This document shows, piece after piece, positions 443 through 42,650 of a stretch of DNA of 42,650 nucleotides. The notes below the pieces were generated by a model, which saw only the letters and a program-made list of their open reading frames with translations, was not told where the DNA came from and did not search any database. Within the stretch, counting starts at the first letter, position 1, and each line of letters opens with the position of its first letter. The DNA comes from a virus (lineage: Duplodnaviria > Caudoviricetes). The stretch is taken from the IMG/VR virus record IMGVR_UViG_3300025018_000039, positions 1 to 42,650 of that record; one strand, 5' to 3'. Made by a program: the position numbers and the translations under genes.

Positions 443-632
443 ACGTAGGCACTATAAAGTGTTGGCTGATTACTGGAAGGAAAGACTTAGTTCTATAAAA
501 TCAGTAGAGAGCAATGCTTGGTATGAACTCACTAGAGAGTATGAGAAGTTCACAGAGTATCTATACAACACTCAAGACAACTTTAGAATTTCTCATTTCG
601 ATGCTCATGTTGGATATGAAAGGACAAACTAA
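426..632 (+). CDS. Hypothetical protein
   Basis: ORF preceded by AAGGAGG RBS; tightly packed in the operon. Confidence 0.65.
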   Translation: MAAMFERRHYKVLADYWKERLSSIKSVESNAWYELTREYEKFTEYLYNTQDNFRISHFDAHVGYERTN

Positions 633-1618: not shown

Positions 1619-2095
1619 ATGTTACCTAAAAATGCTAAGAAAGTGTTCACTAAAGTAGACATGACTGCTACTGAACTTTACGGTGACATGACTACTCCTT
1701 GTTGGCCTTTCACTGGCAAACTTAATGCACAAGATAGGCCTTACATACAGATAGGAGGCAAGAAGCTGTTAGCTTATCGTATAACCCATGAACTTGTGTA
1801 TGGTGATGGTTGTCTAGATGGTTTATTAGCAAGACACAAGTGTGACAACCAAATGTGTTGTAGACCAGATCATGTAGAGGGCGGCGATCACGATGACAAC
1901 ATGAACGATATGAAGCAACGTGAACGTCATGGTTTACCGCACCACACTGTGAAGGCTATACGCAAGTTAGCAGCTAAAGATAACGGACCGACTCACGAAG
2001 TTATAGGAGAACTATATGGTATAGCTAGATCAACAGTAACTAACATTGTCAATGGTGACAGATACGAACACGTAAAGGACTTAGAAGATGAGTAA
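1619..2095 (+). CDS. HNH endonuclease with C-terminal HTH
   Basis: CWPFTG...RHKCDNQMCCRPDH...DNMND HNH-type motif; THEVIGELYGIARSTVTNIV HTH. Confidence 0.85.
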   Translation: MLPKNAKKVFTKVDMTATELYGDMTTPCWPFTGKLNAQDRPYIQIGGKKLLAYRITHELVYGDGCLDGLLARHKCDNQMCCRPDHVEGGDHDDNMNDMKQRERHGLPHHTVKAIRKLAAKDNGPTHEVIGELYGIARSTVTNIVNGDRYEHVKDLEDE

Positions 2096-2811: not shown

Positions 2812-2844
2812 GATTACCTTAACTAAAATCGAAAGGACTTATTT

Positions 2845-3581: not shown

Positions 3582-3771
3582 ACAAGAAATACAAATAGAT
3601 GACTATGTTCTATACAAAGATCAGGTCTCTAAAGTTAAAGGTTTTGCTGGTAGTTTTGTTAACATAGATAAACCTCACAGAGAAAACTTCTTCGTACCAG
3701 TATCAGAAGTTCGTCTTTGCAACAGTGACGGTGTACCTATGTTAAGTCCTTCCGAGGGCCAGCAAGAATAG
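3574..3771 (+). CDS. Hypothetical small beta (KOW/SH3-like) protein
   Basis: IQIDDYVLY...KVKG...V.I pattern; coupled to the upstream gene. Confidence 0.55.
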   Translation: MSKQEIQIDDYVLYKDQVSKVKGFAGSFVNIDKPHRENFFVPVSEVRLCNSDGVPMLSPSEGQQE

Positions 3772-4016
3772 GTTGCAGCTTGGCTATCACTGTTAGCTGT
3801 AACCTTGTGGTGACGTGTTTCATCAATGCTCCGATAGGGCACGTCACCGCTAAACTTAAGTAATGTAAGATGGAGTATAAAGCTGGTTAAAATTTGTTAT
3901 CTAGGTGCTAATCCCGGACCCTAAGCACTGACATATACCCTCACTCATGCAATTAGCCATGCTTTGCAGAGAGAAGATAGCAAGGTTGCAGTTTTATACT
4001 CCTACTCACTTTACTT
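3771..4016 (+). ncRNA. Putative structured non-coding RNA
   Basis: Gene-free gap with at least six stems, many containing G-U pairs that work only on the + strand (see findings). Confidence 0.6.
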
Positions 4017-8110: not shown

Positions 8111-8303
8111 CGCCGCTCGTTTCAATGACGAAGGTGTAATCACATGGGTTGGCCGCGCATTTCACGATGCAAAGCAGCTTGGCTACCTACGTGCTAAAGA
8201 TGTGGAACGGCTTGACCGGCTTGAAAGGACTTATTCTAATGGATTTTACAGCGATAGAGAAACAATTAACTTCCCTAACGGATTTGTTAGGATTTGCTCC
8301 TGA
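8055..8303 (+). CDS. Hypothetical protein
   Basis: GAGGT RBS; fills the gap before the helicase start at 8239. Confidence 0.5.
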   Translation: MTQQLSIQTTARLMAVLNNAARFNDEGVITWVGRAFHDAKQLGYLRAKDVERLDRLERTYSNGFYSDRETINFPNGFVRICS

Positions 8304-13053: not shown

Positions 13054-14328
13054 ATGGCTAGAGCCAAGTACAAAAGAATAGCTAAAGAGAACACCTTCTT
13101 AAGTGATTATATGGAGTACAATAATGAGACTGAAACGCCTTATGATTACGACTTTTGGACTGGTCTTTGGTTACTATCTTCTGTGCTTGGCCGCCATCTT
13201 TTTGTTGATAGACCTATGGCTCCAGTACGACTAAATATGTACTTGATCCTAGTAGCAGAAAGTGGTATTACTAGAAAGTCTACTAGTGTACGTAAGGCAG
13301 TTAAATTTGTACGTCCTTACTGTCCTAATGAGTTAATAGAAAGCAGCATCACACCTGAAAAGTTAGAAGCACAACTAGCTATGCAAACAGCAGAGAAAGA
13401 GTCCGATGGAAAAGAACCTAGCAGTACAGCAATCATTGCTATCGACGAACTCGTCAAGTTCCTTGGTAAAGAGCAGTACACAAGAGCCATGCCGTCGCTC
13501 CTCACTGATCTATATGACTCACCGGATGCACGATCAGGTGGAGGAACTATGGCCAGAGGCGTCACAAATATTAGGAACGTCTTTGTTAGTTTCCTTTCTG
13601 CTTCGACACCCTCATGGTTGTTGCGAACTGTTAATCCCGATGTTATCCAAGGGGGGTTTACTTCACGAGTGATGTTTGTAGTAAGTGAACGTCCTAAGAA
13701 GTCTGTTCCTTGGCCGGAGAAGCCTAATGAAGAACTATTTAACCGTATCAGCAGCACTCTTGAACGTATTAAAAGGCAAGCAGATAGCATGTCATGTATC
13801 ACAATCTCAAAAGCTGCTAGAAGTCGCTTCTCTACTTGGTATAAGCGTAGAGAACTTCGACGGGACACCTTTCGATCCAGTTGGCAATCCAGAGAGGACG
13901 GACACGTTCTTAAAGTTGCAGCGTTGCTCTGTATCAACGAAGAAGCATGGATCATACAAGATCATCATATCAGAAACGCAATTAAACTCGTTGACCAAAC
14001 CAAAGAGTGGGGTGCATCTATATTCGAGGGAACAGGATCATCCACTAAGGAGGTAATTGGTATAGACAAGTTAAGAGACAAGCTTATTGCTTTAGGTCAT
14101 AATGGTGCAACACAGACTGTACTGAACAGGGTTACAACACGCTACTTCAATGCAGAGTTTCTAGGTACAGTGCTAGAAGTCATGCACGAACTAGACATGG
14201 TGCAAAAGTTTGAAGGCGTTAAGTTGAATAAAGGTAAAGGTAGACCTACTACTATATGGAGAGCCACTAAGACATTAGTAGGTGCTACTGCATTAGATGA
14301 CATTATAGGTCATGTAACACCAGATTAA
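13054..14328 (+). CDS. DUF3987-like AAA+ (MCM-clade) helicase with C-terminal winged helix
   Basis: Walker A AESGITRKST, Walker B IAIDEL, ASTP sensor, GGFTSR arginine finger, GRPTTIW wing. Confidence 0.75.
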   Translation: MARAKYKRIAKENTFLSDYMEYNNETETPYDYDFWTGLWLLSSVLGRHLFVDRPMAPVRLNMYLILVAESGITRKSTSVRKAVKFVRPYCPNELIESSITPEKLEAQLAMQTAEKESDGKEPSSTAIIAIDELVKFLGKEQYTRAMPSLLTDLYDSPDARSGGGTMARGVTNIRNVFVSFLSASTPSWLLRTVNPDVIQGGFTSRVMFVVSERPKKSVPWPEKPNEELFNRISSTLERIKRQADSMSCITISKAARSRFSTWYKRRELRRDTFRSSWQSREDGHVLKVAALLCINEEAWIIQDHHIRNAIKLVDQTKEWGASIFEGTGSSTKEVIGIDKLRDKLIALGHNGATQTVLNRVTTRYFNAEFLGTVLEVMHELDMVQKFEGVKLNKGKGRPTTIWRATKTLVGATALDDIIGHVTPD

Positions 14329-17300
14329 GGCAATGGTGTCTTAGCAAGTTCTTCTAGATACTTAGGAGTAAGATTGTTAAACGTAAACCCATCACCTAAT
14401 GTTGGTCGTAGTTTGTTTTCTACATCTGCAATCAACATTCTCTTTGCTTCTATAACAGCCAGTCTCTTTACATTAATCTCATTAATAGCACGGTTACGTT
14501 CTTGAATGGTAGTAACTTTACTATTCTTTACATCTTGCATCTGTGCTGTGAGGTTGCTGTACTGCTTGTCCCACTTGTTCAGTTTAGTAGTAAGACCGTA
14601 AGTACTCTTCTCACCTAATACCTGTTGTCCTAACCAATCTAGTGCAGTTCCACTAAGATCAGGCAAGTCTTGCTCTACTACAGAAGGCATATTCTTATTC
14701 TTACCAGAAGCAGTACTTACACCTGTAAACCCTGCATCACGTATATTACGGTTAAACGAATTACGTAAGTTATCAAGAGCGTTCTGCTTGTCCTTAACAA
14801 TCTGGAAGTCAGGTCCGTAAATGCTGTGGTCCTGTGTAGCCTGTGGCATAAGCCCTTCTAGTGGACTGTTCATAGATGTAACTGCATCTAAGACTCTGCT
14901 CTGTCCAATACGCAGACCACCAGCCCAACTAGTAGGTTGTTTCCCTGTAAACTTATCAGGGTTTGTAGCACGGTGAATGTCATCTAGTATCATCATACCT
15001 GTTTCTGCACCCGCACCGATAGTACTAGATACTACGTTCTTCCAATAAGCTGTAAACATACTATCAGTCAATTCACCTTCACCTGCTAACGGGTTACGTT
15101 CACCAGCAGTACGTGGACTAACAGCTTCATCAAACATCATAGATGCAGGAAGGTCTACGTTAGCCAATGAAGCTACAGTGTTAGCAAGAGGAATAGCACT
15201 GCCATCACCAGTAGGTGCAAGCATAGTCAAACCAGATCGTGCGGCTTGTCCTACAGCAGCTTGTGCATTTTCTATGTTGCCTTCTGGAATATCATCTTCA
15301 AACCAGTCTATAATCAACTTAGCGAAGTTAGGATCAATCGTACCATCTGGAGCCATCATAAGCTGGTCTAGAGTATTAATAATAGGACCGATCATAACAC
15401 GCATAGAAGGATTAACTGGTATCTCTACCCCACCAAACGTAGTTATAGAAGTACCCTTCTGTGCAGGGTTGCGAGAGTCGTTCTTAGCAACAGCTTCTTC
15501 GTCTCCCATGACTAACGGAGCATAATGCAATGCTATAGCAGGGTACAAGATGCCAGCAGTCAAGTTAGTTAAGAACCCTACAGGATCAGCCTTCATCTTA
15601 GCAGCATAAGTGGCCGCTTCTTGTACAGCAATGTTGTGGTACAGTACTGTACTGTTTAGTTTAGTAGTTACAGTACCTTTACCACTCTGTGCAGGATCAG
15701 CTACAATTGCTCTAGCACGGCCCATAAGAGTTTTATAATCAGACACGTTCTTTACATTAGGCATGTTAGCAGCTACGTACTGTATACGTGTACCATCTTG
15801 TAGGTTGCGTAGTAGCATGTTATACGTTCTACCAATCGAACCTGCTTTCGCATAAACAAGTGGAACCTTGGAAGCTTTAAGCATTGTATCAAATGCGCCA
15901 GTAGCTTCTTTAACATCACGTAAGGCAATCTGCTTAGCTAGATCAGGTGCGATACCTTCTAGTCCAATGTCAACTTTGTGTTCCAATCCTGAACCAAGTC
16001 CACTAGCAGATGAAGCACCTTCTGCGTCAATCATCGCACGTATACTCATATCATAATGCTTCTGCAATACATCACGTAGTGCTATAGCACCTTTAGTATC
16101 TAGTGCATCTTTAATCACTCCACCCCTACGCATCATACCACTAGTCATAGCATTAGCCATTGCACCAGCTATATCAGCTTGTAAGCCACGTATACCACCT
16201 GTTAAGAAGGCAACGTGTGCAGATGGATCAAGAGCAGTTAGATCAACTCCTGCAACCTTTGTACCTATCCCCATCTTGTTGAATAGTTCACTAAACAGTC
16301 CAAGCTGTGTACCTGTAGGTCTAGCTACAATAGCTGTCTGACTGTCAAAGAATGGAGAGATAGCCATACGAAAGTAACCAGCTAAGTTACCCACACCAGT
16401 TGTAAAGGTTTGTTGCACACTTCGCATTGTGTTAAAAACTTCATCCACTTGTTTAGGAGAGAACTTCAATGCCTCGTACAAGTCACCTTGATTGATCTGC
16501 CAATACGTAACTTCACCATCACCACTATATGTAGCAATAGCCTTTTCTTTGTCTTTGACCTTAGATGCAGACTTTACAGGTAGTTTACGAATGATGGGAA
16601 TGTTGTTACCTAAACTGTCTTTAACAGTAAAACTGGGGTCAATCCTGCTTAAGAAGTCATGCCTAAACTTGTTCTCTTCTGCTGCCTTAACAGCTTTAGT
16701 TACCATAGTAGGGATGTATTCTATAGGAGAGAAAGCTTCGCCATCTTGTACACTAGAGTAATCTTCATTCTTACTGCGAGAATACAGACCTTCAATAGCA
16801 CCATCACCAGGAATTTCAGTGTTCTTAGCTTCTTTAGGTTCCAGCCCTTCTACAGTTGCGTTCTTCTTAAGAGGTGCGTAGTTAGGGCTCTCTGCTCTGA
16901 TCTTGTTGTAATCAGCAGTACTAATCATATTCATGTTATGCAAGTACTTTAACGTGTCAGCGTACACTCCTTGTGTACCTTCAAGATGCTGCTTAAGTTG
17001 TGGATCAGCTATAGCCAAGTTAACTCTAGCTTGCAACTCTGTTGTAGACTTTGTAGTAAATGCAGCACTGGCTTTGTACCCAACCTGTTTACGGTCATCT
17101 AATGCAGTTGCAGCAGTCAATGCGTCATTAAGCACTTGCTTCTGTTGTGGTGTAAGGTTCTTGCCATAGCTTTCCATCAGAGGACCAATAGGTCTTGCTC
17201 TCACTGAACTGTTAGGAAACTCACCTGTTTTTAACACATGTGAAGTCTTAGCACCAATAGCACCTGCATTGTTTACAAGGTTCTTAGTGGCAATAATCTC

Positions 17301-18728
17301 ATTAGCTTGTTCTACAGGCATGGTTAAACGAGCAACGTCTTTAATAGACCTATCACCTTCTGAATAACCAGCACTAATCTTTTGCATGATTGTAGCTTTG
17401 GAAGGGAGGTTGTAGTGTCCAATACTAGTATCGTCACTAGGTGGGTTCAGTATATTACCAATTCGACTTTCTATGCTTCTATAAACTTTGTACCCACCTA
17501 GAGTAACAGCTAATGCAATTGCACCTGCTTGCCAAGGTTCTAGTTCTATACTAGGCACTTCGTCGTCTACAGGTTCAAGTGGAGAATTAGCACTAAGTCT
17601 GTCTGCTGTCTTTTGATCTTTGTACTCTGGTGTCTTGTCTTGTACATCACCCATTGCTATAGCTGTGTTTGTCTGTATCTCTTTCAACATACGTGCAGCT
17701 TCGCCATCTGGGATTGTAACTCCCATAAGCATACGACTTAGACGTTGAATGTCTGGTACAGTAGTATAGATACCTTTCTTCTCTATAGCACGTTGGAAGG
17801 CTTCTGCATCTTCTGGTGCAACTACAACTTCAACAGGTTGGAAGGTTCTATCTGCAACCATCTGGTCACGCATAGCAACTTGTTCAGTCAGTTTGTTTAA
17901 GTCGTACTCATAGCCTTGTTGGTCCATCATTGCAGCAAGTTCTTCTACAGGATAGCCTTTATTGAAGTACGTAGTAAATACAGTCTGTAACTCTTTGGGA
18001 TAAAAGTCACCCTCTGGCTTTGCTACTGTAGAAGAGTTAGCTAAGTAATCAATAACACCATTATAAACATCATTCTCTTCGTACTCGTCTACATCACGTA
18101 GCACACCATCCACTGTCTCTTGAATACCGATACCGAACGCTTGGTTAGCAGGTACAGCTACAGACAGCTTAGTATTACGCAGTGGAACAGCGAGTTCAAA
18201 GACAACTTTGTTTACACCGTTTACAGTTTTGCCTACAACACCTAAACTCTTTAGTTTGGTAGAAGCTGCATCTATCGCTCTGCCCGGCGCACCAATCTTT
18301 CCCACTCGTGGAACTTTAGCAGGTACAACTAATCCACCACCAATTTCTGTTGCAAGTTGCAGTGCGTTCTCTGCATTGTTAATGCCAAAATCTTCGTTGA
18401 TACGATCATTAGCTGCACCAAGACGTTCTACACTCTTAGCAACATATCCGTTAGGATCAAGAGGATCAGTAGCTTCATAACCTAAAGCTGTTCTGCCAAG
18501 GTCTAATCCCATCTTACCTAAATTAATAGTAGCACCGAGTTGATCTACAATAGCAGGTCTGTACTTTTTGCCTTCTATTAGTTTATCTTCTTCTGACTGC
18601 GTACTAGCAACAGTAGACATAAGCAAGCCTTTAAGAAACAAACCTCCGTACTGTTGTGCAGTAGAAGGCTCTTCTTTAACTGGCTTTGCAGGTGGAATTA
18701 TACTTGAAACTGTTTGCTTTTCAGGCAC
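14325..18728 (-). CDS. Large internal virion / ejection protein (LPD38-associated-like)
   Basis: 1467 aa, last late gene, Ala/Gly-rich helical; NSTVLYHNIAVQE segment resembles large polyvalent ejection proteins. Confidence 0.65.
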   Translation of the reverse strand: MPEKQTVSSIIPPAKPVKEEPSTAQQYGGLFLKGLLMSTVASTQSEEDKLIEGKKYRPAIVDQLGATINLGKMGLDLGRTALGYEATDPLDPNGYVAKSVERLGAANDRINEDFGINNAENALQLATEIGGGLVVPAKVPRVGKIGAPGRAIDAASTKLKSLGVVGKTVNGVNKVVFELAVPLRNTKLSVAVPANQAFGIGIQETVDGVLRDVDEYEENDVYNGVIDYLANSSTVAKPEGDFYPKELQTVFTTYFNKGYPVEELAAMMDQQGYEYDLNKLTEQVAMRDQMVADRTFQPVEVVVAPEDAEAFQRAIEKKGIYTTVPDIQRLSRMLMGVTIPDGEAARMLKEIQTNTAIAMGDVQDKTPEYKDQKTADRLSANSPLEPVDDEVPSIELEPWQAGAIALAVTLGGYKVYRSIESRIGNILNPPSDDTSIGHYNLPSKATIMQKISAGYSEGDRSIKDVARLTMPVEQANEIIATKNLVNNAGAIGAKTSHVLKTGEFPNSSVRARPIGPLMESYGKNLTPQQKQVLNDALTAATALDDRKQVGYKASAAFTTKSTTELQARVNLAIADPQLKQHLEGTQGVYADTLKYLHNMNMISTADYNKIRAESPNYAPLKKNATVEGLEPKEAKNTEIPGDGAIEGLYSRSKNEDYSSVQDGEAFSPIEYIPTMVTKAVKAAEENKFRHDFLSRIDPSFTVKDSLGNNIPIIRKLPVKSASKVKDKEKAIATYSGDGEVTYWQINQGDLYEALKFSPKQVDEVFNTMRSVQQTFTTGVGNLAGYFRMAISPFFDSQTAIVARPTGTQLGLFSELFNKMGIGTKVAGVDLTALDPSAHVAFLTGGIRGLQADIAGAMANAMTSGMMRRGGVIKDALDTKGAIALRDVLQKHYDMSIRAMIDAEGASSASGLGSGLEHKVDIGLEGIAPDLAKQIALRDVKEATGAFDTMLKASKVPLVYAKAGSIGRTYNMLLRNLQDGTRIQYVAANMPNVKNVSDYKTLMGRARAIVADPAQSGKGTVTTKLNSTVLYHNIAVQEAATYAAKMKADPVGFLTNLTAGILYPAIALHYAPLVMGDEEAVAKNDSRNPAQKGTSITTFGGVEIPVNPSMRVMIGPIINTLDQLMMAPDGTIDPNFAKLIIDWFEDDIPEGNIENAQAAVGQAARSGLTMLAPTGDGSAIPLANTVASLANVDLPASMMFDEAVSPRTAGERNPLAGEGELTDSMFTAYWKNVVSSTIGAGAETGMMILDDIHRATNPDKFTGKQPTSWAGGLRIGQSRVLDAVTSMNSPLEGLMPQATQDHSIYGPDFQIVKDKQNALDNLRNSFNRNIRDAGFTGVSTASGKNKNMPSVVEQDLPDLSGTALDWLGQQVLGEKSTYGLTTKLNKWDKQYSNLTAQMQDVKNSKVTTIQERNRAINEINVKRLAVIEAKRMLIADVENKLRPTLGDGFTFNNLTPKYLEELAKTPLP

Positions 18729-24999: not shown

Positions 25000-26630
25000 G
25001 CTCTAATACCTTTACTAAAGTAGTGCATAGTGATACCGACAAAACCTAGTTTCTGTTTAAGTGTTCCAGATACTTTAAGTTTGCCTATCTCGAACTTAGC
25101 TGGCCAAGCATACAGTTTCTTGTAACTTGTGTTACGGCCCCCACCATATACTTGTTCACCGTCACCAAACAGACCTTGTTCACCACCACTAAATCCCATA
25201 GACAAACTAGAAGTTCGAAAGTTATCTACAAACATTTCTAGTGTAAACTCTCCATCCCCTCTAGTATCAAGACTAATGTATCTAGACGACTTTGTTAAGG
25301 CTCTGTTACCTATATCCAACCAAGGAGTAGCCCAACTAAAACTGATTGCATCCCCATCTGGATTAGGATCATCACTGATAGTGTCGATAAAATCGGCGTA
25401 GATAGGATTAGTTTTACTTCCATAAAGCCAGATGTTTCCATCAGCATCGCCAAAAAATATGTTGCCCAAGAGTGATCTACATCCACAATTAAAATTCCAT
25501 CCTGTAAAGATTGTCCAAGCACTTTGCCGAATAGCTGGTTTATAATGATACACATAACAACGTGTAGATGATAAGTCTGCATTAGGTACAAAAAGCATGT
25601 AATGTCCTTGTTTAGGATCATACACCCTAAATACAGCTTCATCCAGTTGTGCTTCTGTAAGTAGTGAGAGTTGGCCAACTACATCTGGATCAATCAATTC
25701 ACTAACACGTTCAGGTTTGAAACTGGTAGACAGTACTGTTCTCTTGATGCTAGGTACACCATACTGATCCACTAATAGCCCGTCATCACCACTAGCAACT
25801 GCTGCTCTGTGGGCTACACAGCCATACCCTTCGATCGTATCTACTAGAATAGGTTCATGGTTCCCATCTGCATCGTAATTGCCCAATTCATACACAACAG
25901 TACCTTCTGCAAACAGTACAAGTAAGCGGTTACGAAAGGACATGATGCCTCTAATAACTGCTCCACGAGCAAGACTGTCTACATCAAACCTAGTTGCATC
26001 ATTAGGTGGAGGATCACCAAACCAAGTTCCAGGAGCGTTACGTGCAGATATATGTACACGGCGTGGGAATAAAGGATCACCTGCCATAACTAAGTAGTTA
26101 CCTACTACCGCAATGTATTTACATACAGGAATGTTAATGTTGGTTAATGTAGCTGCATCTTGTAAGTACGAGACAGATAAATTTTCATCTACTTCTAAAG
26201 GCTTGTCTATGCCATTTACTATGTGCATGTTACCTTGCATAGTTGCAAACGAAGCGAATGTAGTATCTCCCCATGCATTAGGGGAACCACTCAAAGCTGT
26301 TGCAATGGTTGTATTGAATATTTCATTGACTTCACCAGCACCATTTGTAGCTTGCACTGTTCCATCTGTAGTAACAGTAATAATGTTGTTGTTGAAGTAC
26401 TCCATGTTTACAAGAGTGCCATCTATCTCTGCAAACTTCTGTGTACCAAACCTTACGTCTACAGTACCATCTGCGTCAATGATTACATTCTCCATTTCAG
26501 TAGCAAACTTAGGAGACAAGTTCATGCTGTCATCAATAAGGTTCAAGCCACCACTTGCTCCACGTAGTGTGAAGTTCTGTAGTACTCGTGACTTATTGAT
26601 GCTAGTTAGCTTCATGGCCTTTCTGTCCAA
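24996..26630 (-). CDS. Tail nozzle / tubular protein B-like beta-propeller
   Basis: GGLN N-terminus, GCVAHRA motif, size and position typical of a podovirus nozzle. Confidence 0.7.
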
Positions 26631-27262
26631 CCTCTAGGTATTTCATCCTGTTGGTTATCTAATTGTATAGGATGGTTGAAGGCAGAGTTATTAAGTTGTA
26701 AGTACCTACTGTTAAACAATGCTTGATGCTTATCAGCCGAAGCTTGCATTTCATCATCTACAAAGTACTGCCAACATGCAAAGTGTTTTAGTGCATCTTC
26801 ATCGAATGGGACTATATCAGTATTTACAAATTCGTCGTAAGACTTTCTGCCTACTATGAGTACATCACCTGTAGACTCTAGAGGATAAACTACAAACAGT
26901 TTGCCTTCTGTATCAGTTTGTTCTATAAATCTAGGGAAAGTACCTACAAGTCCTATAGTGTTAAATGCACTAGGAAGAACAGGTATAGGTCTTGAAGAGG
27001 TCGAAGGCATAACGTACTGAATATCATCGTATTCTGTAATGTCTGTTACATTTACTGTAACTTCACCACTTGTACCGTTAAGGGTTCTTACCTGCCTACG
27101 TTTATGTTGGGGCCAGAACTTTGCCTTATGAACATGCTTGAAAGCATTAATAATCATCTGTTGCAGAATTTCTTCTGAATACAACTGTACCTGTGGCCCT
27201 GCACTTTGGTACAGTTCTCTTTCTACTATGGTAGTAAGTTGTTCTAAAGTTTTATAGGCCAT
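26612..27262 (-). CDS. Head-tail adaptor (tubular protein A-like)
   Basis: AGGAG RBS; 216 aa, upstream of the nozzle gene. Confidence 0.65.
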   Translation of the reverse strand: MAYKTLEQLTTIVERELYQSAGPQVQLYSEEILQQMIINAFKHVHKAKFWPQHKRRQVRTLNGTSGEVTVNVTDITEYDDIQYVMPSTSSRPIPVLPSAFNTIGLVGTFPRFIEQTDTEGKLFVVYPLESTGDVLIVGRKSYDEFVNTDIVPFDEDALKHFACWQYFVDDEMQASADKHQALFNSRYLQLNNSAFNHPIQLDNQQDEIPRGWTERP

Positions 27263-27273
27263 AGTACACTCCT

Positions 27274-27311
27274 AAAGGGGTGCGACAGCGAGGACCAGAC
27301 TGCCGCACCCC
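27274..27311 (-). terminator. Leaky intrinsic terminator ending the capsid operon
   Basis: Minus strand GGGGTGCGGCAG-loop-CTGTCGCACCCC followed by only TTT. Confidence 0.65.
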
Positions 27312-27348
27312 ATAGACAACGTAACGAGAAAGGACTTAATCAAAAACG
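27274..27348 (-). ncRNA. Putative 3' UTR anti-Shine-Dalgarno sRNA
   Basis: Contains UUAAGUCCUUUCU and loop UGGUCCUC, complementary to phage RBS motifs (see findings). Confidence 0.5.
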
Positions 27349-28020
27349 CTACGCTGAATAGTGTGCGATACCATGCAAACCACCGTTGCCAGCAGCATTA
27401 ACATCACTATTAGGGATGAACACGGCTCCGAGGATTTTAGTACCATTAGGAGTTGTAGTAGGTACATAAGTACCACGTGGGTCTACTGTAGTTGCAGTCT
27501 GTGGATCAGTAAGAACACCAGATACAAACGTACCAGCGGCAGCGTCATCACCATCTACAGTCTCAATGATGGCAGCTTGCATACGGTAAGGAAGTCCAAA
27601 CTTTGTTCCAAACCCAAGATCAATAGTACGATCAGCAGTTGCACCAACTACTACACTATCAATCCAATAGAAGGCTTTAACACCAACTACAGGCGTAGTA
27701 CCATTAAGAGTAAAGCTTTCAGTCATTGGTTGACCAAGATAATCTTTACCATTAACAGTTACAGCACTAGTAGCAATACCATTAGCAACAACAGTTACAT
27801 TACGACCAAATGGTGCATCAGCTTCATCTAGTAGAAACGTAGTTACTGTTACTGCTTCTGCAATAGTTTGTCCACCAAGAATACCATCTGGATCAGCAGC
27901 AGCAGGTGCACCAAAGTTTACACGATGTGGTGCAGCATGAATTACATCACAAGCATAACCCATTGCTGGAACGTAAGCGTTGTAACGACGATTATAAAAG
28001 GTTGCAGTTCTTGCAGTCAT
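27349..28020 (-). CDS. Putative capsid decoration / minor structural protein
   Basis: T/A/G/V-rich beta protein in the capsid operon, just before the terminator. Confidence 0.55.
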   Translation of the reverse strand: MTARTATFYNRRYNAYVPAMGYACDVIHAAPHRVNFGAPAAADPDGILGGQTIAEAVTVTTFLLDEADAPFGRNVTVVANGIATSAVTVNGKDYLGQPMTESFTLNGTTPVVGVKAFYWIDSVVVGATADRTIDLGFGTKFGLPYRMQAAIIETVDGDDAAAGTFVSGVLTDPQTATTVDPRGTYVPTTTPNGTKILGAVFIPNSDVNAAGNGGLHGIAHYSA

Positions 28021-28031
28021 TGTTCAATTCC

Positions 28032-28343
28032 TTATTCTTCCATTACATCGGTAATAGGATCATTACCAAAGTCATAAGGATCTCCACCGGGATCAACTAC
28101 ATCGCCTGTATCCAGATCGACCATTCTTGGCCTTACGTGTAGTCCCAATTGTTTTAGCTTGGCGAAGGAAGTACAACGAAGTGAATGTCCCTGTGGAAAC
28201 TGTACATGGTAACACTCAAGTTCTTCTTCTACTTCATCATACTCCAAGCTTTTAGTTTTCTTATCTATACGATACAAGCGATAAGAAACCTTTTCTTTCT
28301 TTGGTGGAGATACTTTATATGCGGCTTTAATACGTCTAGCCAT
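28032..28343 (-). CDS. Hypothetical protein downstream of the capsid gene
   Basis: AGAGGACCA RBS. Confidence 0.7.
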   Translation of the reverse strand: MARRIKAAYKVSPPKKEKVSYRLYRIDKKTKSLEYDEVEEELECYHVQFPQGHSLRCTSFAKLKQLGLHVRPRMVDLDTGDVVDPGGDPYDFGNDPITDVMEE

Positions 28344-28366
28344 GATAGTTGGTCCTCTTAGTTAGT

Positions 28367-29317
28367 TTAGTCAATCACAACACCGTGGGTACGGTATGCC
28401 TTCCACAAGCACCATTGGCCCTGCCATACAGTACGTGAACCGTGTGCATCAGTGTCCCAAGGCGAAGAAAGCTTCTTAACTTTCATGTTTACATGCTTAA
28501 GGATGTGTACACGAAGGTACTTACTGTTAATGAAGTAGCACTTATCAGCAGGACAATCTTCATCATACAACATTGGGATGTTTTGATGTGACATGCCACT
28601 GAAACCAAGATCAACCATACCTTTACCTTTAGGCATAGTATCAAGATTGATGACTAGCTTGTCACGTACAGCAGCACGATACAAACGCCAGATGTTGCGA
28701 CCAACCAAGATCAAGTCTGGTTTATCACTCTTAAGTGTAAGATCAAGCAGTACGTCATCAAATGCTTCTTCAATGTTAGTAGCATCCAGTGCACCAGCAA
28801 AGTTGTAAGCACTAGTACGCCACTGTGTTTCAGTAGCACGACTAATACCGCCAAGTGAGCCTGTAGTTGGATCATCTGGAATAAGAGCAGGTAGACCTAC
28901 AGGGTCAGTACCACCACCAGCTTGATAAAGATAGTCACTAAACTTCTCTTTAATGCTTTCTTCCAAAACTTCCATCTTAGCTTTCATAAGCTTAAAGATT
29001 TGAGTCTTGCCCTTGTTTTCATCTTCTTCCTGATCTGAAATGATAACAGAACCAGCGACACGAGACCAGTTGTACTCAATAGTCTCAAACTCACTAGTCT
29101 GTGCAACAGGAAGCTGATCGTAGTACTCATAAGATGCAACATTCGGGTTACGTCCAAGAGTGATAGGGTTCGTAACGTGACGACCACCATCTTCGTATTC
29201 TACTCGACCAGAAGAAAACGCCCAAGCCATTAGAGCATTAGAGCGAACCGATGCCATAATCAGTTTAGCACGTGACTTCTGAACAGTAGAATGTAGTACA
29301 GTACTCAATACTGACAT
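28367..29317 (-). CDS. Major capsid protein (HK97 fold)
   Basis: Position after scaffold; GG..(I/V)..P, GL..L, GGISRA..WR, G...F.G..ipm..D..C motifs. Confidence 0.85.
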   Translation of the reverse strand: MSVLSTVLHSTVQKSRAKLIMASVRSNALMAWAFSSGRVEYEDGGRHVTNPITLGRNPNVASYEYYDQLPVAQTSEFETIEYNWSRVAGSVIISDQEEDENKGKTQIFKLMKAKMEVLEESIKEKFSDYLYQAGGGTDPVGLPALIPDDPTTGSLGGISRATETQWRTSAYNFAGALDATNIEEAFDDVLLDLTLKSDKPDLILVGRNIWRLYRAAVRDKLVINLDTMPKGKGMVDLGFSGMSHQNIPMLYDEDCPADKCYFINSKYLRVHILKHVNMKVKKLSSPWDTDAHGSRTVWQGQWCLWKAYRTHGVVID

Positions 29318-30345
29318 TATCCTAATCCTTGTTCTTTCATACTCTCTCTTACAATATCATCGAGAGATTGGTTAGCGGAACTAGAAACTTGTGTATTGAC
29401 AGACTTTACGTTGCCTTCAATTACATCACCATTGCCACGCGGCATTGGCTTTTGTTGCTCTTGCTGTTGCGGTGTTTGCTTAATCTGCTGCTCAAGAGGA
29501 GTGTTCCAGTCCAACCCTTTAGAAACAAAGCTATCGCGCAAAGCGTAATAAGCATCATCAAGTTTTATGTTGGGATTTGCGTTCACAAGTTGAGCAATAA
29601 GCCCATCGTGAAGTCTGGCATCGGGTCTACGACCGTAGAAATCGTTTACTTCGGCAACTGCTTCCTGTTCAGGGTCAGTCTGCTGTGTGGACACATTTTG
29701 CTGCTGTAAATGTTGAGCAATTTGTGCGTCCAGACCAGTAGTAATTCCATCTATTGTATAGCCTTTTGAGAGAAATTCTGCAAGCAGTTTCTTCAATGTC
29801 CCTGTAGGATCAGATTTGAAACCTGCAACAATATCTGCACCGATCTTCACTTCTGACGGATCAACACCATAAGTAGCCTTAGCTGCCTCTTCAAACAACT
29901 TAGCTTTCTCTTCTGCTTGTTGTGCTTTAGTTTCAAGAGCGGTAAGCTGTTCTTTACTTTCTACAATCTGTTTACGTGCAAGTTCACGTTGTTCATAAAA
30001 CCTACGTTCACGACCTGCATTAGCAACTACTTTGTTTGTTACAGGATTGACAAGTGCACCGTCTTTAACAATTAAGTTTTGTCCTGTAATATCTTCTTCG
30101 ATACTAGTGCTATCTGCGTCAGCAGTTTGCTGTTGTTCACCCTCTTTTGGTTTAGGAGTCTGTTCGTCCTTCTCCTGTTCCGGTTTCTCACCTTTAGCTG
30201 CATTTAACTCTCCTGTCTCTTCATCGACTGTATCATCTTCAATCTGATCTTCGGGAGCGTTCAAAGCTTCATCAATAGCACTCTGAATGTTTTCCTCTTG
30301 TGTAGGTTCTTTCTGTTCTTCTTCTTTAAGATCATCTAAGTTCAT
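29317..30345 (-). CDS. Capsid scaffolding protein
   Basis: Acidic, E/Q-rich coiled coil between portal and capsid genes. Confidence 0.75.
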   Translation of the reverse strand: MNLDDLKEEEQKEPTQEENIQSAIDEALNAPEDQIEDDTVDEETGELNAAKGEKPEQEKDEQTPKPKEGEQQQTADADSTSIEEDITGQNLIVKDGALVNPVTNKVVANAGRERRFYEQRELARKQIVESKEQLTALETKAQQAEEKAKLFEEAAKATYGVDPSEVKIGADIVAGFKSDPTGTLKKLLAEFLSKGYTIDGITTGLDAQIAQHLQQQNVSTQQTDPEQEAVAEVNDFYGRRPDARLHDGLIAQLVNANPNIKLDDAYYALRDSFVSKGLDWNTPLEQQIKQTPQQQEQQKPMPRGNGDVIEGNVKSVNTQVSSSANQSLDDIVRESMKEQGLG

Positions 30346-30360
30346 TATATTGGTCCTTAC

Positions 30361-32565
30361 TTACTGTTGTTGTGCTTGTAGTTCTTGTTCAATGGCTGCT
30401 AATGCTTCTGCTGGTGGCGCACCTTGGTCTACCATTTCTTGCAGTGATGCTTGTCCTTCTGGTGGCAAGTTAGCAATTCTAGCAGCTATCTCTGTTTTAG
30501 GGTCTTCCTGCCCTTCCTGTTGTCCTCCTGCTTGTTGTGGTTGTCCTTCTTGTCCTGAACCTGCTTTGTTCAATGCCTGCATCATAGTGTCTTTAATCAT
30601 TGCCCAATCATCATCACTAATGATGAATTGACCTTTGAAGCTTTCTTCAAGCATCTTAAGCATTACAATTACAATAGCAGGACTTGCATTTGCAAACTGA
30701 CCAAGTATCTGACCGAGTTCAATAGCAAGTGCTTTAAGTTCCTTAGCAGTAGGTTTGTTACTAGAACCACCAACTACACGACAGTTGACAAAGGTTTTGA
30801 TTAAGTCTCTAGGATCAAGTATCTGTTTCCAGTACTCTGCAAGATCAACACCTATAATCTCTGCAACATCTTCTTGTTCCCAATTCATAACACATAACAT
30901 GAGTATGTTACGCATTACATCACCTATGAAGTCCTCTATCAAATCAATACGTTCATTAGTACGAATATCCATTACGGCTCTGTAATCTTCTACAGCACTA
31001 GTATTCGTATTAGTCTTGTACTGTCCCCCTCTAGAAGCTTCATTAAGACCAGAGATACGATTGATAGCAGCTATCTTACTTTCTGTATTGAACAGTTCTG
31101 GAAACTTAAGTGCTGGTGGAGTGATAGACATGATAGCATCATTAAGAGTTTGACCATCTTCTAGATCAATCCCTCTAGCTGTTCCATCGTCACCTTTAAG
31201 CACTGCTTCTACATCATCTTGTGAGATAGCACGTTTGTTGTAAAACACATTACGCTTGGCCCACGCTCTACCTCTACGAACTTCGTCGTTAATTTCATTG
31301 ATAGCATCTTGCTGGTCTAAGTAGTATGTAACTTCACCTTTAGGGTTACTGTCATCTGGACTCTCATGGAACCACAACCTAAAGTAAGGGAAGAACCTTG
31401 GGAGGTTAAGGAAGTCATCCCAAACCCAAATAGGCCAGTCCCAATTGTTGTCGCTGAACATTAGAATGCGTCTAGTGATTTTGTCCCATACATACCATAC
31501 TTTAGTATAGCTACCATACTTAAAAGCTGTTGGGTTGTCATACCCATTTTGTTTAGCTGTCATGCTATCAGTATCAGCTTCTTTAATAGCTACAAAGTTG
31601 TTTACAGTATCATCAAGACTATTCTCATCATTGTGTTCTGTACTCAATACATGGGTAGGTTTGTAAACTGATCTAATCTCTCCACTAGCTTCGTCTCGTT
31701 CACCATATACAGCCTCTAGATAACTGGTAGGAAGGTAATCTGCTTCCATTATCCAGTTACCAGCAGCAGGATCAGGGTCCAAGTTAGCAGGATCAGTTAC
31801 AATACGATGAGGAAGCATGACTGTAGCCCAAGGACCACCTTTATCTAGCATAGAAATCTTTTCTTCTAATGCTTGCAACTGTCCTTCAATCTCTACAATC
31901 TCTTTCTTGTCTTTAGCTTTCTCTAGTTTCAATGCTAGAGTTTGTAGTTCAGCAAAGCCAGCTTCTAGACTATCTTTCTTCTTAGTAAACCCAATACGCA
32001 TGTAAGCAGAGTTTGTAAGTAGTGCAATAAGAATGGTCTTACGCATCTTAGTCTTGAGATTAATGCCTGGCTTGTCCTTCATTTCCATAAGTTTGTCACC
32101 GAGACGTTCTAACATTTCACAATAGGGTTTGTTATCTTCTATATTGTCTACAATAGCAATGTCAGGGTTTTTAGCATACAACATAGGAACCATAATACTA
32201 CAGTTAGAGAATACAAAGTTCTCTGTCTCTGTATAGTTATTATTCAACCTTTTAGCATATAGCTTGTTGCCGCTACGATCTTCTTGACCTGTAGTTCTAT
32301 GGGATTGTTGATCGTTGTTGTAATAACGAATGGTTTCATCCCAAGCGTCCTTAGCAGAACTGCGATGCTTCATTCCTTGTTGTTGTCTACCCTTCCACAA
32401 CATGCCAGTAGCTTTACTTACAGGAACCTTACTGTCACCAATCTTTTTATAGATAGGTACATCTTTCTTTTTGTTCTTGTTGTCAAAGCTTACATCAAAC
32501 TCTTTAAGTGATGCTGCCAAGTTTGGATTGTTTGCTACAGCTTCTTCATTACCTTCAAGCGGCAT
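30361..32565 (-). CDS. Portal protein
   Basis: 734 aa after TerL; LDQQDAINE segment and Q-rich C-terminal barrel typical of P22-like portals. Confidence 0.85.
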   Translation of the reverse strand: MPLEGNEEAVANNPNLAASLKEFDVSFDNKNKKKDVPIYKKIGDSKVPVSKATGMLWKGRQQQGMKHRSSAKDAWDETIRYYNNDQQSHRTTGQEDRSGNKLYAKRLNNNYTETENFVFSNCSIMVPMLYAKNPDIAIVDNIEDNKPYCEMLERLGDKLMEMKDKPGINLKTKMRKTILIALLTNSAYMRIGFTKKKDSLEAGFAELQTLALKLEKAKDKKEIVEIEGQLQALEEKISMLDKGGPWATVMLPHRIVTDPANLDPDPAAGNWIMEADYLPTSYLEAVYGERDEASGEIRSVYKPTHVLSTEHNDENSLDDTVNNFVAIKEADTDSMTAKQNGYDNPTAFKYGSYTKVWYVWDKITRRILMFSDNNWDWPIWVWDDFLNLPRFFPYFRLWFHESPDDSNPKGEVTYYLDQQDAINEINDEVRRGRAWAKRNVFYNKRAISQDDVEAVLKGDDGTARGIDLEDGQTLNDAIMSITPPALKFPELFNTESKIAAINRISGLNEASRGGQYKTNTNTSAVEDYRAVMDIRTNERIDLIEDFIGDVMRNILMLCVMNWEQEDVAEIIGVDLAEYWKQILDPRDLIKTFVNCRVVGGSSNKPTAKELKALAIELGQILGQFANASPAIVIVMLKMLEESFKGQFIISDDDWAMIKDTMMQALNKAGSGQEGQPQQAGGQQEGQEDPKTEIAARIANLPPEGQASLQEMVDQGAPPAEALAAIEQELQAQQQ

Positions 32566-38389: not shown

Positions 38390-38480
38390 AATATATGTAC
38401 CTTTATATATGTGATGTATTTGTGTGCAGTGTGACCCAAACTTGTCTTACTTGTTGGGGGGTCGTTTAGGTTCCTAACCT

Positions 38481-38508
38481 ATTATACCGCGAGAAAATAA
38501 GCTGTCAA
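38481..38508 (-). promoter_or_regulatory. Main late sigma70 promoter
   Basis: Minus strand TTGACA-N16-TATAAT with AT-rich upstream element. Confidence 0.8.
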
Positions 38509-38846
38509 GCCCCTTTTTTATATTTATTCACTTCCCCGACTAGGCCGTTAGGAATAGTCGGCGTATCCCATTACCCTTTAACTATGTTTCGTTACTCTTA
38601 CAATCTCTTAACTACACCACGTAACAACTACTAACATTTATATAGAGCACGCTACAGCTTAGGTATGTTTAGATTAGATTAGTTAGCATGTTTATACGCA
38701 GCTAAGTTTATTAGAGAGATAATGGAGGGGTTGACCTTATTGCACACCATCCCAAACCCCACTACACCCCACTTTTAATTTCAACCGGGGGGCTAGGGGG
38801 GTCTAGCTACTAGGTAACGTGCACGATCACACACGTAACGACATGC

Positions 38847-38888
38847 TAACACGTGTTAAGAGACTGCCGTGCCGTAACACGTGTTAAG
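38847..38888. repeat. Direct repeat of palindromic TAACACGTGTTA(AG), 2 copies
   Basis: 38847-38860 and 38875-38888 are identical 14-mers, 28 bp apart. Confidence 0.85.
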
Positions 38889-39069
38889 CTGCACCTAATA
38901 TGTTTTTGGATCACGGTTGTTTTGGGTTTGTGCTGTTGTGTAACAGATAGTGGTTGCATTAAGTGACGATGTAGCGTAGTTAGATCATAGTCGCTTTGAG
39001 CGGCGTCACTCCAGCACTGTGTTAATCTAATACAACACTAAGCTGCACTAACTAGAAGGACTTAATAAT

Positions 39070-39335: not shown

Positions 39336-39364
39336 TTGACTTAAGCGTTAGTATAGTGTATATA
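39336..39364 (+). promoter_or_regulatory. Early sigma70-type promoter
   Basis: TTGACT-N17-TATATA; hairpin 39370-39397 at the predicted +1. Confidence 0.65.
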
Positions 39365-39420
39365 TTACATATCAAACAACAATAGTGTAGTTTGATAACT
39401 TAAATAAAGGACTTTTACTT

Positions 39421-40502: not shown

Positions 40503-40531
40503 TTGACTTAAGGCATGTTTTGTGCTACAAC
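40503..40531 (+). promoter_or_regulatory. Early sigma70-type promoter
   Basis: TTGACT-N17-TACAAC with extended -10 TG; hairpin 40538-40554 at +1. Confidence 0.7.
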
Positions 40532-40588
40532 AAGAATAGACGCTGATAGTGTCTCTTACCTAAAACTTAACTCCTGAAAGGACTTAAC

Positions 40589-41102: not shown

Positions 41103-41128
41103 CACGAATAAACTAGAAAGGACTTAAC

Positions 41129-42346: not shown

Positions 42347-42377
42347 TACAACTTAACTTAAACAGAAAGGACGTAAC

Positions 42378-42650
42378 ATGAATAAACCATCTATCGAAAC
42401 AGCAGAATACAACAAGTTCGTTGATACACTCTCATCTAAGGACTTCCATAAGGATTTGGTCCCAGCTGGAAGGGTAGGAGGACTGTTGAAACAACTCTTA
42501 GAACTTGCAATGGTAACTGATATAGCTAAGAAAGCACTCTTCTACGGTAAAGTTGGTCCAGAAGAAATTGATCCTATACCAGAAGCGTACAAGCAAGGTT
42601 GCATTGACGGTTGGCAAGAGTACATTGACGAAACAGAACGTTCTTACCCT
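42378..42650 (+). CDS. MazG-like protein, N-terminal part (continues at 1-442)
   Basis: AGAAAGGAC RBS; open frame MNKPSIETAEY...DIAKKALFYGK through the overlap. Confidence 0.75.
   Translation, partial: MNKPSIETAEYNKFVDTLSSKDFHKDLVPAGRVGGLLKQLLELAMVTDIAKKALFYGKVGPEEIDPIPEAYKQGCIDGWQEYIDETERSYP
42524..42650. repeat. Terminal overlap copy 2
   Basis: Identical to bases 1-127. Confidence 0.95.

Follow-up and report, generated by a model that had tools for sequence, protein, structure and literature searches.

In the icaR mRNA of Staphylococcus aureus, a motif in the 3' untranslated region (UTR) pairs with the Shine-Dalgarno (SD) region, and both repression and RNase III cleavage have been shown (PMC3868564). 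The cuckoo/RSs0680 (CcsR) small RNAs (sRNAs) of Alphaproteobacteria consist of two to four hairpins that carry one fixed loop motif, CCUCCUCCC (PMC4615179). Base-pairing RNAs encoded by phages include lambda aQ, PreS, VP882 VpdS, and P1/P7 c4 (PMC12197685), and the scaffolding protein of phage P22 is recycled and translationally autoregulated, with its N terminus implicated (bioRxiv 10.1101/2022.12.13.520362).

The locus analyzed here lies in a 42,650-base virus record (the window, i.e., the whole stretch of DNA under study). Its plus strand carries replication and small genes, among which a family A polymerase, a RecD-like helicase, a primase, and a Sak4-like protein were recognized, and its minus strand carries a virion operon that includes terminase, portal, and major capsid protein genes. 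We refer to plus-strand genes as early and to minus-strand genes as late on the basis of gene content, their timing being presumed. A preliminary description of this DNA had taken it for a phage with no RNA polymerase (RNAP) or sigma factor, and indeed neither was matched among the 57 window proteins scanned. The protein matches of the window are <31% identical, a search of an annotated phage collection gave no DNA match, and 573 stretches of viral contigs encode a relative of its capsid protein. Hints as to the host conflict, with one relative on a contig of a bacterial bin (L086) set against one source name. The window ends (1 to 127 and 42524 to 42650) form a 127-nt repeat inside a MazG-like gene, from which it follows that the record is circular and the gene complete. 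The head block, whose gene order is conserved in most relatives, runs portal, 342-aa putative scaffold, capsid, 103-aa gene, 223-aa gene, a gap of 86 to 87 nt, and an adaptor-like gene; gene starts come from a simple in-house caller, and some of them are erroneous. The features of the late strand that concern us are as follows.

38481 to 38508, minus strand: perfect sigma-70-type promoter match (12/12 consensus) ahead of the late operon, predicted only
30351 to 30357, minus strand: HP2 target AGGACCA, RBS (ribosome-binding site) of the putative scaffold gene, from loop complementarity
29317 to 30345, minus strand: putative scaffold gene, 342 aa, so named from its position between the portal and capsid genes only; no HMM match
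28367 to 29317, minus strand: major capsid protein (phrog_9953, E = 7.5e-51); its RBS is not an HP2 target (7-nt match in 1/70)
28350 to 28357, minus strand: HP2 target GAGGACCA, RBS of the 103-aa gene, the best of 59 starts
28032 to 28343, minus strand: 103-aa gene, after the capsid gene and bounded by the capsid and 223-aa genes
27349 to 28020, minus strand: 223-aa beta-sandwich protein, likely a capsid decoration protein, with the two-hairpin element as its 3' UTR
27317 to 27356, minus strand: HP1, predicted 10-bp hairpin with a 20-nt loop over the stop codon of the 223-aa gene, from folding
27327 to 27339, minus strand: HP1 seed UUAAGUCCUUUCU, antisense to the early RBS word, from RBS complementarity and accessibility
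27277 to 27311, minus strand: HP2, 13-bp GC-rich hairpin (-24.4 kcal/mol) with a 3-U tail, from folding
27290 to 27298, minus strand: HP2 loop CUGGUCCUC, antisense to the RBSs of the scaffold and 103-aa genes, from complementarity and co-variation
26612 to 27273, minus strand: downstream gene, weakly SU10-adaptor-like (PF24175, E = 4.4e-05, below the curated cutoff)

The predicted model of the 223-aa protein has a pLDDT of 90, and its best structural match is a viral turret protein domain (Z = 7.3, a value that may reflect a mere common fold), so that a role in capsid decoration is likely rather than certain. The 103-aa protein gave no match to PHROG, Pfam, or Atlas and no fold above a Z of 3.1.

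HP2 shares with icaR a 3' UTR motif that is antisense to the SD of the same transcription unit, co-transcription being deduced here from gene order, and in both the pairing may act in cis or in trans (PMC3868564). In icaR, a single gene of a bacterium is concerned, its UTR is long, and the complementarity extends over about 40 nt, whereas loop seeds of 7 to 13 nt in a phage operon are involved here, two inner cistrons are picked while their neighbors are spared, and a second loop aims at the opposite strand; repression was demonstrated for icaR and is here predicted from sequence (PMC3868564). With the cuckoo RNAs the locus shares adjacent hairpins, of which two are predicted, variable and compensated stems, and anti-SD-like loops; unlike theirs, the two window loops, UUUUUGAUUAAGUCCUUUCU and CUGGUCCUC, differ from each other, lack the common CCUCCUCCC in each hairpin, vary across 70 relatives, and change with their own targets (PMC4615179). 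Rfam gave no match at the gathering threshold for the window and five relatives, and one chance microRNA match (E = 1.8) lies outside the element. The element functions like the icaR pairing and resembles the cuckoo RNAs but belongs to neither. As in P22, a recycled scaffold would be damped post-transcriptionally with respect to the coat protein; there the N terminus of the scaffolding protein is implicated, whereas the candidate regulator here is a loop in the operon's own RNA (bioRxiv 10.1101/2022.12.13.520362). Known phage sRNAs likewise act by phage-encoded base pairing, but those described are cis-antisense or free sRNAs, mostly of temperate phages and linked to lysogeny or host genes, and in the main text of the review that covers them, as distinct from its supplementary table of 38 sRNAs, neither "capsid" nor "scaffold" occurs (PMC12197685). 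We found no description of such a phage element, or of such control in lytic phages, in the open-licence literature.

Our reading, which is drawn from sequence comparison and which we consider probable, is that the gap holds an anti-SD RNA element that damps translation of the scaffold and 103-aa genes throughout the family and, in one subclade, that of early genes as well. What the sequences show directly is the complementarity, its co-variation, the strand on which HP2 lies, and the fact that only those genes are matched, and, as the loops and the RBSs change together in relatives, the RNA is likely a built-in brake on those genes.

The preliminary description had treated 27277 to 27311 as a terminator. 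This does not hold: the stem is followed by UUU and then AGGAG, a terminator scan was negative, and a U-rich tail (at least five T among the 8 nt that follow the stem) occurs in 11/70 relatives, so that the combination of GC-rich stem and U-tract typical of an intrinsic (Rho-independent) terminator is not found in the window. HP2 is more likely a stabilizing or processing barrier than a classic terminator. The set examined was derived from 167 capsid gene loci, of which 106 had both a hairpin call and a scaffold start, giving 73 distinct hairpins; three candidates that were no real hairpin were dropped, leaving 70. Their stems vary freely yet remain paired, and isolated G.U pairs outnumber A.C by 51 to 5, with the stem register picked by Watson-Crick pairs alone; this bias places HP2 on the late mRNA strand. 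It also disposes of a CsrA-like decoy on the opposite strand. A pseudoknot between the HP2 loop and the SD of the adaptor-like gene (AGGAG, 27269 to 27273, 3 nt behind HP2) was likewise rejected, since a 3-nt linker should not be able to span a 13-bp stem; there is also no co-variation (3/69).

The HP2 loops are 82% C+U, and in 51 of the 70 distinct relatives the loop is a perfect complement, over at least 7 nt, of the RBS of the scaffold gene in the same locus. The mean loop energy is -13.8 kcal/mol with the own scaffold RBS and -10.7 kcal/mol with those of others, a difference reached in none of 10,000 permutations. Among disjoint close pairs on the capsid tree, the own scaffold combination was better in 24, worse in 6, and tied in 5 (P = 7e-4). 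For the 103-aa gene, the loop matches in 55/66, with 19 close pairs better, 9 worse, and 5 tied (P = 0.044). The control RBSs behaved otherwise: that of the capsid gene matched in 1/70 (13 better, 16 worse, 6 tied), that of the 223-aa gene, which is not an HP2 target, in 1/65 (9, 21, and 2), and that of the adaptor-like gene in 3/69 (16, 15, and 3). The loop matches the scaffold RBS over a longer stretch than the 16S tail does in 64/70, as against 8/70 for the capsid RBS. Matches to the scaffold RBS (64/70) fall into 16 classes of core word, although 30 of the 64 come from one clade. In this AAGGGG clade, L070, L049, L062, and L188 have loop and target variants of their own; L070 and L049, with 11-nt matches each, are single-lineage switches relative to their AAGGGG clade-mates, and L061 has a 12-nt match. 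The target of the 103-aa gene in this clade usually lies between the SD and the AUG, where pairing with 16S rRNA is not the explanation. Across 18 genomes, HP2 is mostly the one among the strong hairpins near gene ends that matches several RBSs of its own genome.

There are exceptions. Six of the 70 loops (L001, L038, L069, L074, L084, and L188) lack a 6-nt match containing GG, the L001 loop pairs with its scaffold RBS through G.U only, and three loci have no HP2 hairpin. Two genomes added later fail as well, G016 having a 3-nt loop and G017 a CU-rich loop that matches neither the scaffold nor the 103-aa gene. Ranked by raw duplex energy across the whole genome, the HP2 loop does not come first for these two genes in every case. 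In the phage records BUCT555, ppBjS10J-1, Mx9, 45A6, and ct52p938, hairpins are present behind the head genes, but none has a 7-nt loop match to the pre-capsid gene, so that among these five distant records we found no cultured model. With these exceptions counted, we regard the HP2 pairing as very probably real.

The pairing of HP2 with two late genes, missed in the preliminary description, is the conserved core of the element and a stronger signal than HP1. As a separate observation within the AAGGGG clade (L050, L055, L059, and others), 20 of the 31 loci with a CCCCTT loop have no SD between HP2 and the start of the adaptor-like gene; the same 20 carry AGG directly before HP2, possibly a split RBS with the hairpin looped out.

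The other hairpin contains the 13-mer from which the preliminary description set out. It had reported AGAAAGGACTTAA at 27327 to 27339 (plus strand) together with a series of early RBS matches, and a check of the sequence found all of them; the single other window copy, at 41115, is the RBS of ORF 41129. No ATG, GTG, or TTG stands at SD distance, as had been claimed, and the next plus-strand start, a GTG at 27361, is 26 nt behind the AGGA, so a plus-strand ORF that uses the 13-mer as its RBS is ruled out. The 13-mer had been placed in a free spacer before the terminator, but it belongs to the loop (20 nt) of a hairpin that has a 10-bp stem and spans the stop codon. The minus-strand gene that ends at 27349 is not the capsid gene (28367 to 29317). 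The stretch 27255 to 27360 of the minus strand, which spans both hairpins, folds with a z of -4.0 against 200 shuffles. Four of the 10 HP1 pairs are changed on both sides (window, L001, L002, and L122), and L122 differs from L002 in the stem while the loop is unchanged. In the predicted fold the CCUUUCU part of the seed is unpaired with a probability of 0.79 to 0.99, and UAA/GUC is partly self-paired. An exposed seed with several distant targets, as predicted here, is a mark of 3'-UTR-derived trans-acting sRNAs; no promoter-like match was found on the minus strand in the 3' part of the 223-aa gene. The predicted targets of HP1 are listed next.

618 to 625, plus strand: RBS of a 169-aa ORF, 8 nt
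2074 to 2083, plus strand: RBS of a 104-aa ORF, 10 nt
2831 to 2841, plus strand: RBS of a 143-aa ORF, 11 nt (G001 orthologue, GAAGGGA)
8223 to 8233, plus strand: RBS of the RecD-like helicase, 11 nt (G001 orthologue, GAAGGGAT)
39056 to 39066, plus strand: RBS of a 55-aa ORF, 11 nt
39406 to 39414, plus strand: RBS of a 272-aa ORF, 9 nt (G001 orthologue, GAAGGGA)
40576 to 40587, plus strand: RBS of ORF 40589, 12 nt
41115 to 41127, plus strand: RBS of ORF 41129, 13 nt
42364 to 42376, plus strand: RBS of the MazG-like gene that crosses the window end, 12/13

Of 35 early RBSs in the window, 8 are complementary to the HP1 loop over at least 8 nt and 6 over at least 10 nt, the maxima in 17 other genomes being 5/33 and 1, respectively. 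None of the 21,410 other 26-nt windows of the late strand matches as many early RBSs as HP1 (the maximum is 5). The word AGGACTT occurs in 7/35 early and 0/23 late RBSs of the window. When targets are ranked with accessibility included, as the preliminary description had proposed, the best seven are all early genes both in the window (7 of 59 starts) and in G001 (7 of 65).

Conservation of the seed was assessed in L001, which has late genes only and a capsid protein 96% identical to that of the window, and in G001, the sole close complete genome (capsid 84%). L001 keeps 11 of the 13 seed nucleotides. G001 has a different loop, AAUCCCUUC, with UCCCUUC as the seed part, and its commonest early RBS word is GAAGGGA; 8 of the 10 early-strand sites of this word are RBSs before a start, one other is the loop itself, and it is found in 0 late RBSs. 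Three orthologues (the helicase, the 143-aa ORF, and the 272-aa ORF) are switched, each carrying in either genome the early word of that genome, the helicase start of G001 having been re-read by eye. The change amounts to U to C in the loop and A to G in the targets, and the switch could have passed through a G.U stage. Co-variation of HP1 thus holds between two complete genomes, the window and G001, and the expectation that the seed be conserved and co-vary with early RBSs is borne out by L001 and G001 but not by the more distant genomes, in 14/14 of which the anti-early loop is absent (0 or 1 matches of their own); it is therefore not a family-wide function. Besides the window, such a loop was seen in L001 and L002/L122 only: scanning viral contigs for the pattern gave L001 and L002 and no others, scans with the helicase and polymerase added no closer complete genome, and no convincing anti-early loop was found elsewhere in 16 other genomes. 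At the 7-nt level, the HP1 region matches a late RBS in three relatives (103-aa gene in L024, 223-aa gene in L017, and capsid gene in G006); the HP2 loop of L024 matches the scaffold only, as if the two loops had shared out the targets.

The alternative that survives best, though we think it unlikely, accepts the HP2 pairing and holds HP1 to be incidental: the early word would stem from 16S pairing and copying of leaders, and the loop would be a drifted anti-SD copy. Consistent with this, UCCUUUCU is identical to the end of the 16S tail GAUCACCUCCUUUCU that is common to many bacteria (PMC6288834), and the leaders of 41129, 40589, and 2417 share GACTTAACATGACTT into the reading frame, past the reach of the loop; as part of the shared early leader (CATGACTT) exceeds the loop pairing, leader copying may have taken place too. 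A second antisense copy of the early word, at 3739 to 3751, matches 7/35 early RBSs, and G008 carries the AGAAAGGA RBS family but has no such loop, 5/33 of its early RBSs matching the window loop at 8 nt. Against it, the window and G001 words differ and each loop fits its own genome at 7 nt (9/35 and 8/38, as against 3/38 and 2/35 when crossed), and in each genome no intergenic site other than the loop is antisense to the top early word, save for the gene cut at the window end. When the loop is shuffled with its CCTT core fixed, 1 of 3,000 shuffles attains the observed early RBS count in the window and 82 of 3,000 reach it in G001, where the match is modest. On this balance, a function for HP1 is somewhat better than an even bet. 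In G017, 7/34 early RBSs are matched over 7 nt by the loop of G001.

A second alternative, which we rate as improbable, is that the loops do pair but bring about no repression, serving instead in nuclease protection, head-message processing, or the return of ribosomes from the stop of the 223-aa gene to upstream starts. Co-variation reveals pairing and not its sign, HP1 overlaps a stop codon at which ribosomes terminate, and the icaR duplex doubles as an RNase III substrate (PMC3868564); however, in almost every locus the duplex with the scaffold RBS occupies positions of about -16 to -3 relative to the start and so covers the SD.

We consider it very improbable that the shared words are recognized by a phage protein that binds DNA or RNA, with the hairpins as ordinary stabilizers or terminators bearing a reversed site. 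In its favor, the scaffold and 103-aa leaders share a word as repressor sites do (mean, 8.2 nt, versus 4.8 nt for other pairs), GACTTAA recurs in two early promoter-like sites (39338 and 40505), and G.U is not enriched at the flanks of the HP2 duplexes (scaffold, 11 G.U to 26 A.C; noncognate, 344 to 899). Against it, the reverse complement would not be recognized by a protein that binds RNA, and a site in DNA does not require a hairpin on the RNA strand, yet the stems favor G.U and the word in the loop takes 16 different forms; moreover, a promoter-like site in G005, a genome without the RBS family, likewise begins with TTGACTTAAG.

We return to repression by pairing as the preferred reading and set out how it might operate. 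On the late mRNA, the 87-nt gap behind the head genes would fold into two hairpins with open loops that pair with the phage's own RBSs, the HP2 loop with those of the putative scaffold and 103-aa genes and the HP1 loop with some nine early ones. A duplex over the SD blocks 30S binding, and, as the seeds cover the SD, pairing would prevent initiation. HP2 may stabilize the upstream head message and thereby make this end abundant. It would work within its own operon, where its targets lie 1.0 and 3.1 kb upstream, either in cis or from one copy to another, and may keep scaffold low relative to the capsid and decoration proteins as head mRNA accumulates. HP1 must act in trans, because its targets sit on the other strand, and could do so either while still the stable end of the head message or once released as a fragment; with the sigma-70-type match at 38508 placed 11 kb upstream of the element, HP1 would accumulate late. 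HP2 would then be the old, family-wide module and the anti-early loop of HP1 a later addition. More tentatively, the two may form one riboregulator of about 80 nt in a lytic phage, in which a loop that sets the scaffold-to-capsid ratio and a loop for early shutoff in trans together provide a protein-free early-to-late switch, with seeds that co-evolve with phage RBS words and not with the host 16S tail.

It is poorly understood how phages that use host RNAP and consensus promoters, and that have no dedicated regulator, time their genes and balance their head parts. In a large uncultured family, the co-evolution of a loop with the scaffold RBS would be an RNA answer to a problem that P22 reportedly solves with a protein, and it would show that RBS variants of phages, such as AGGAC, GAGAGG, and AAGGGG, can serve as address labels and need not be noise.

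Several other features of the window were noted. The plus-strand copy at 3739 to 3751 comprises 13 nt complementary to the RBS and the first start-codon letters of ORFs 41129 and 40589; it forms the last codons of a 65-aa early ORF, is outside any open loop, is without an equivalent in G001, and lies just before two strong hairpins in an early intergenic gap (3772 to 3850, plus strand). G001 has a hairpin pair with other stems in the matching gap (about 31080 to 31200, capsid sense), and the second loops of both pairs contain TCATC. On the minus strand, a 1,467-aa gene (14325 to 18728) without a PHROG match ends the late operon and likely encodes an internal virion protein. Early promoter-like sites occur at 39336 to 39366 and 40503 to 40532 (plus strand), each starting with TTGACTTAAG, as does the site in G005. 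The divergent late and early blocks are divided by a 660-nt noncoding stretch (38390 to 39050), which contains runs of G and of C as well as a repeated TAACACGTGTTAAG and may be a region of packaging or of replication origin.
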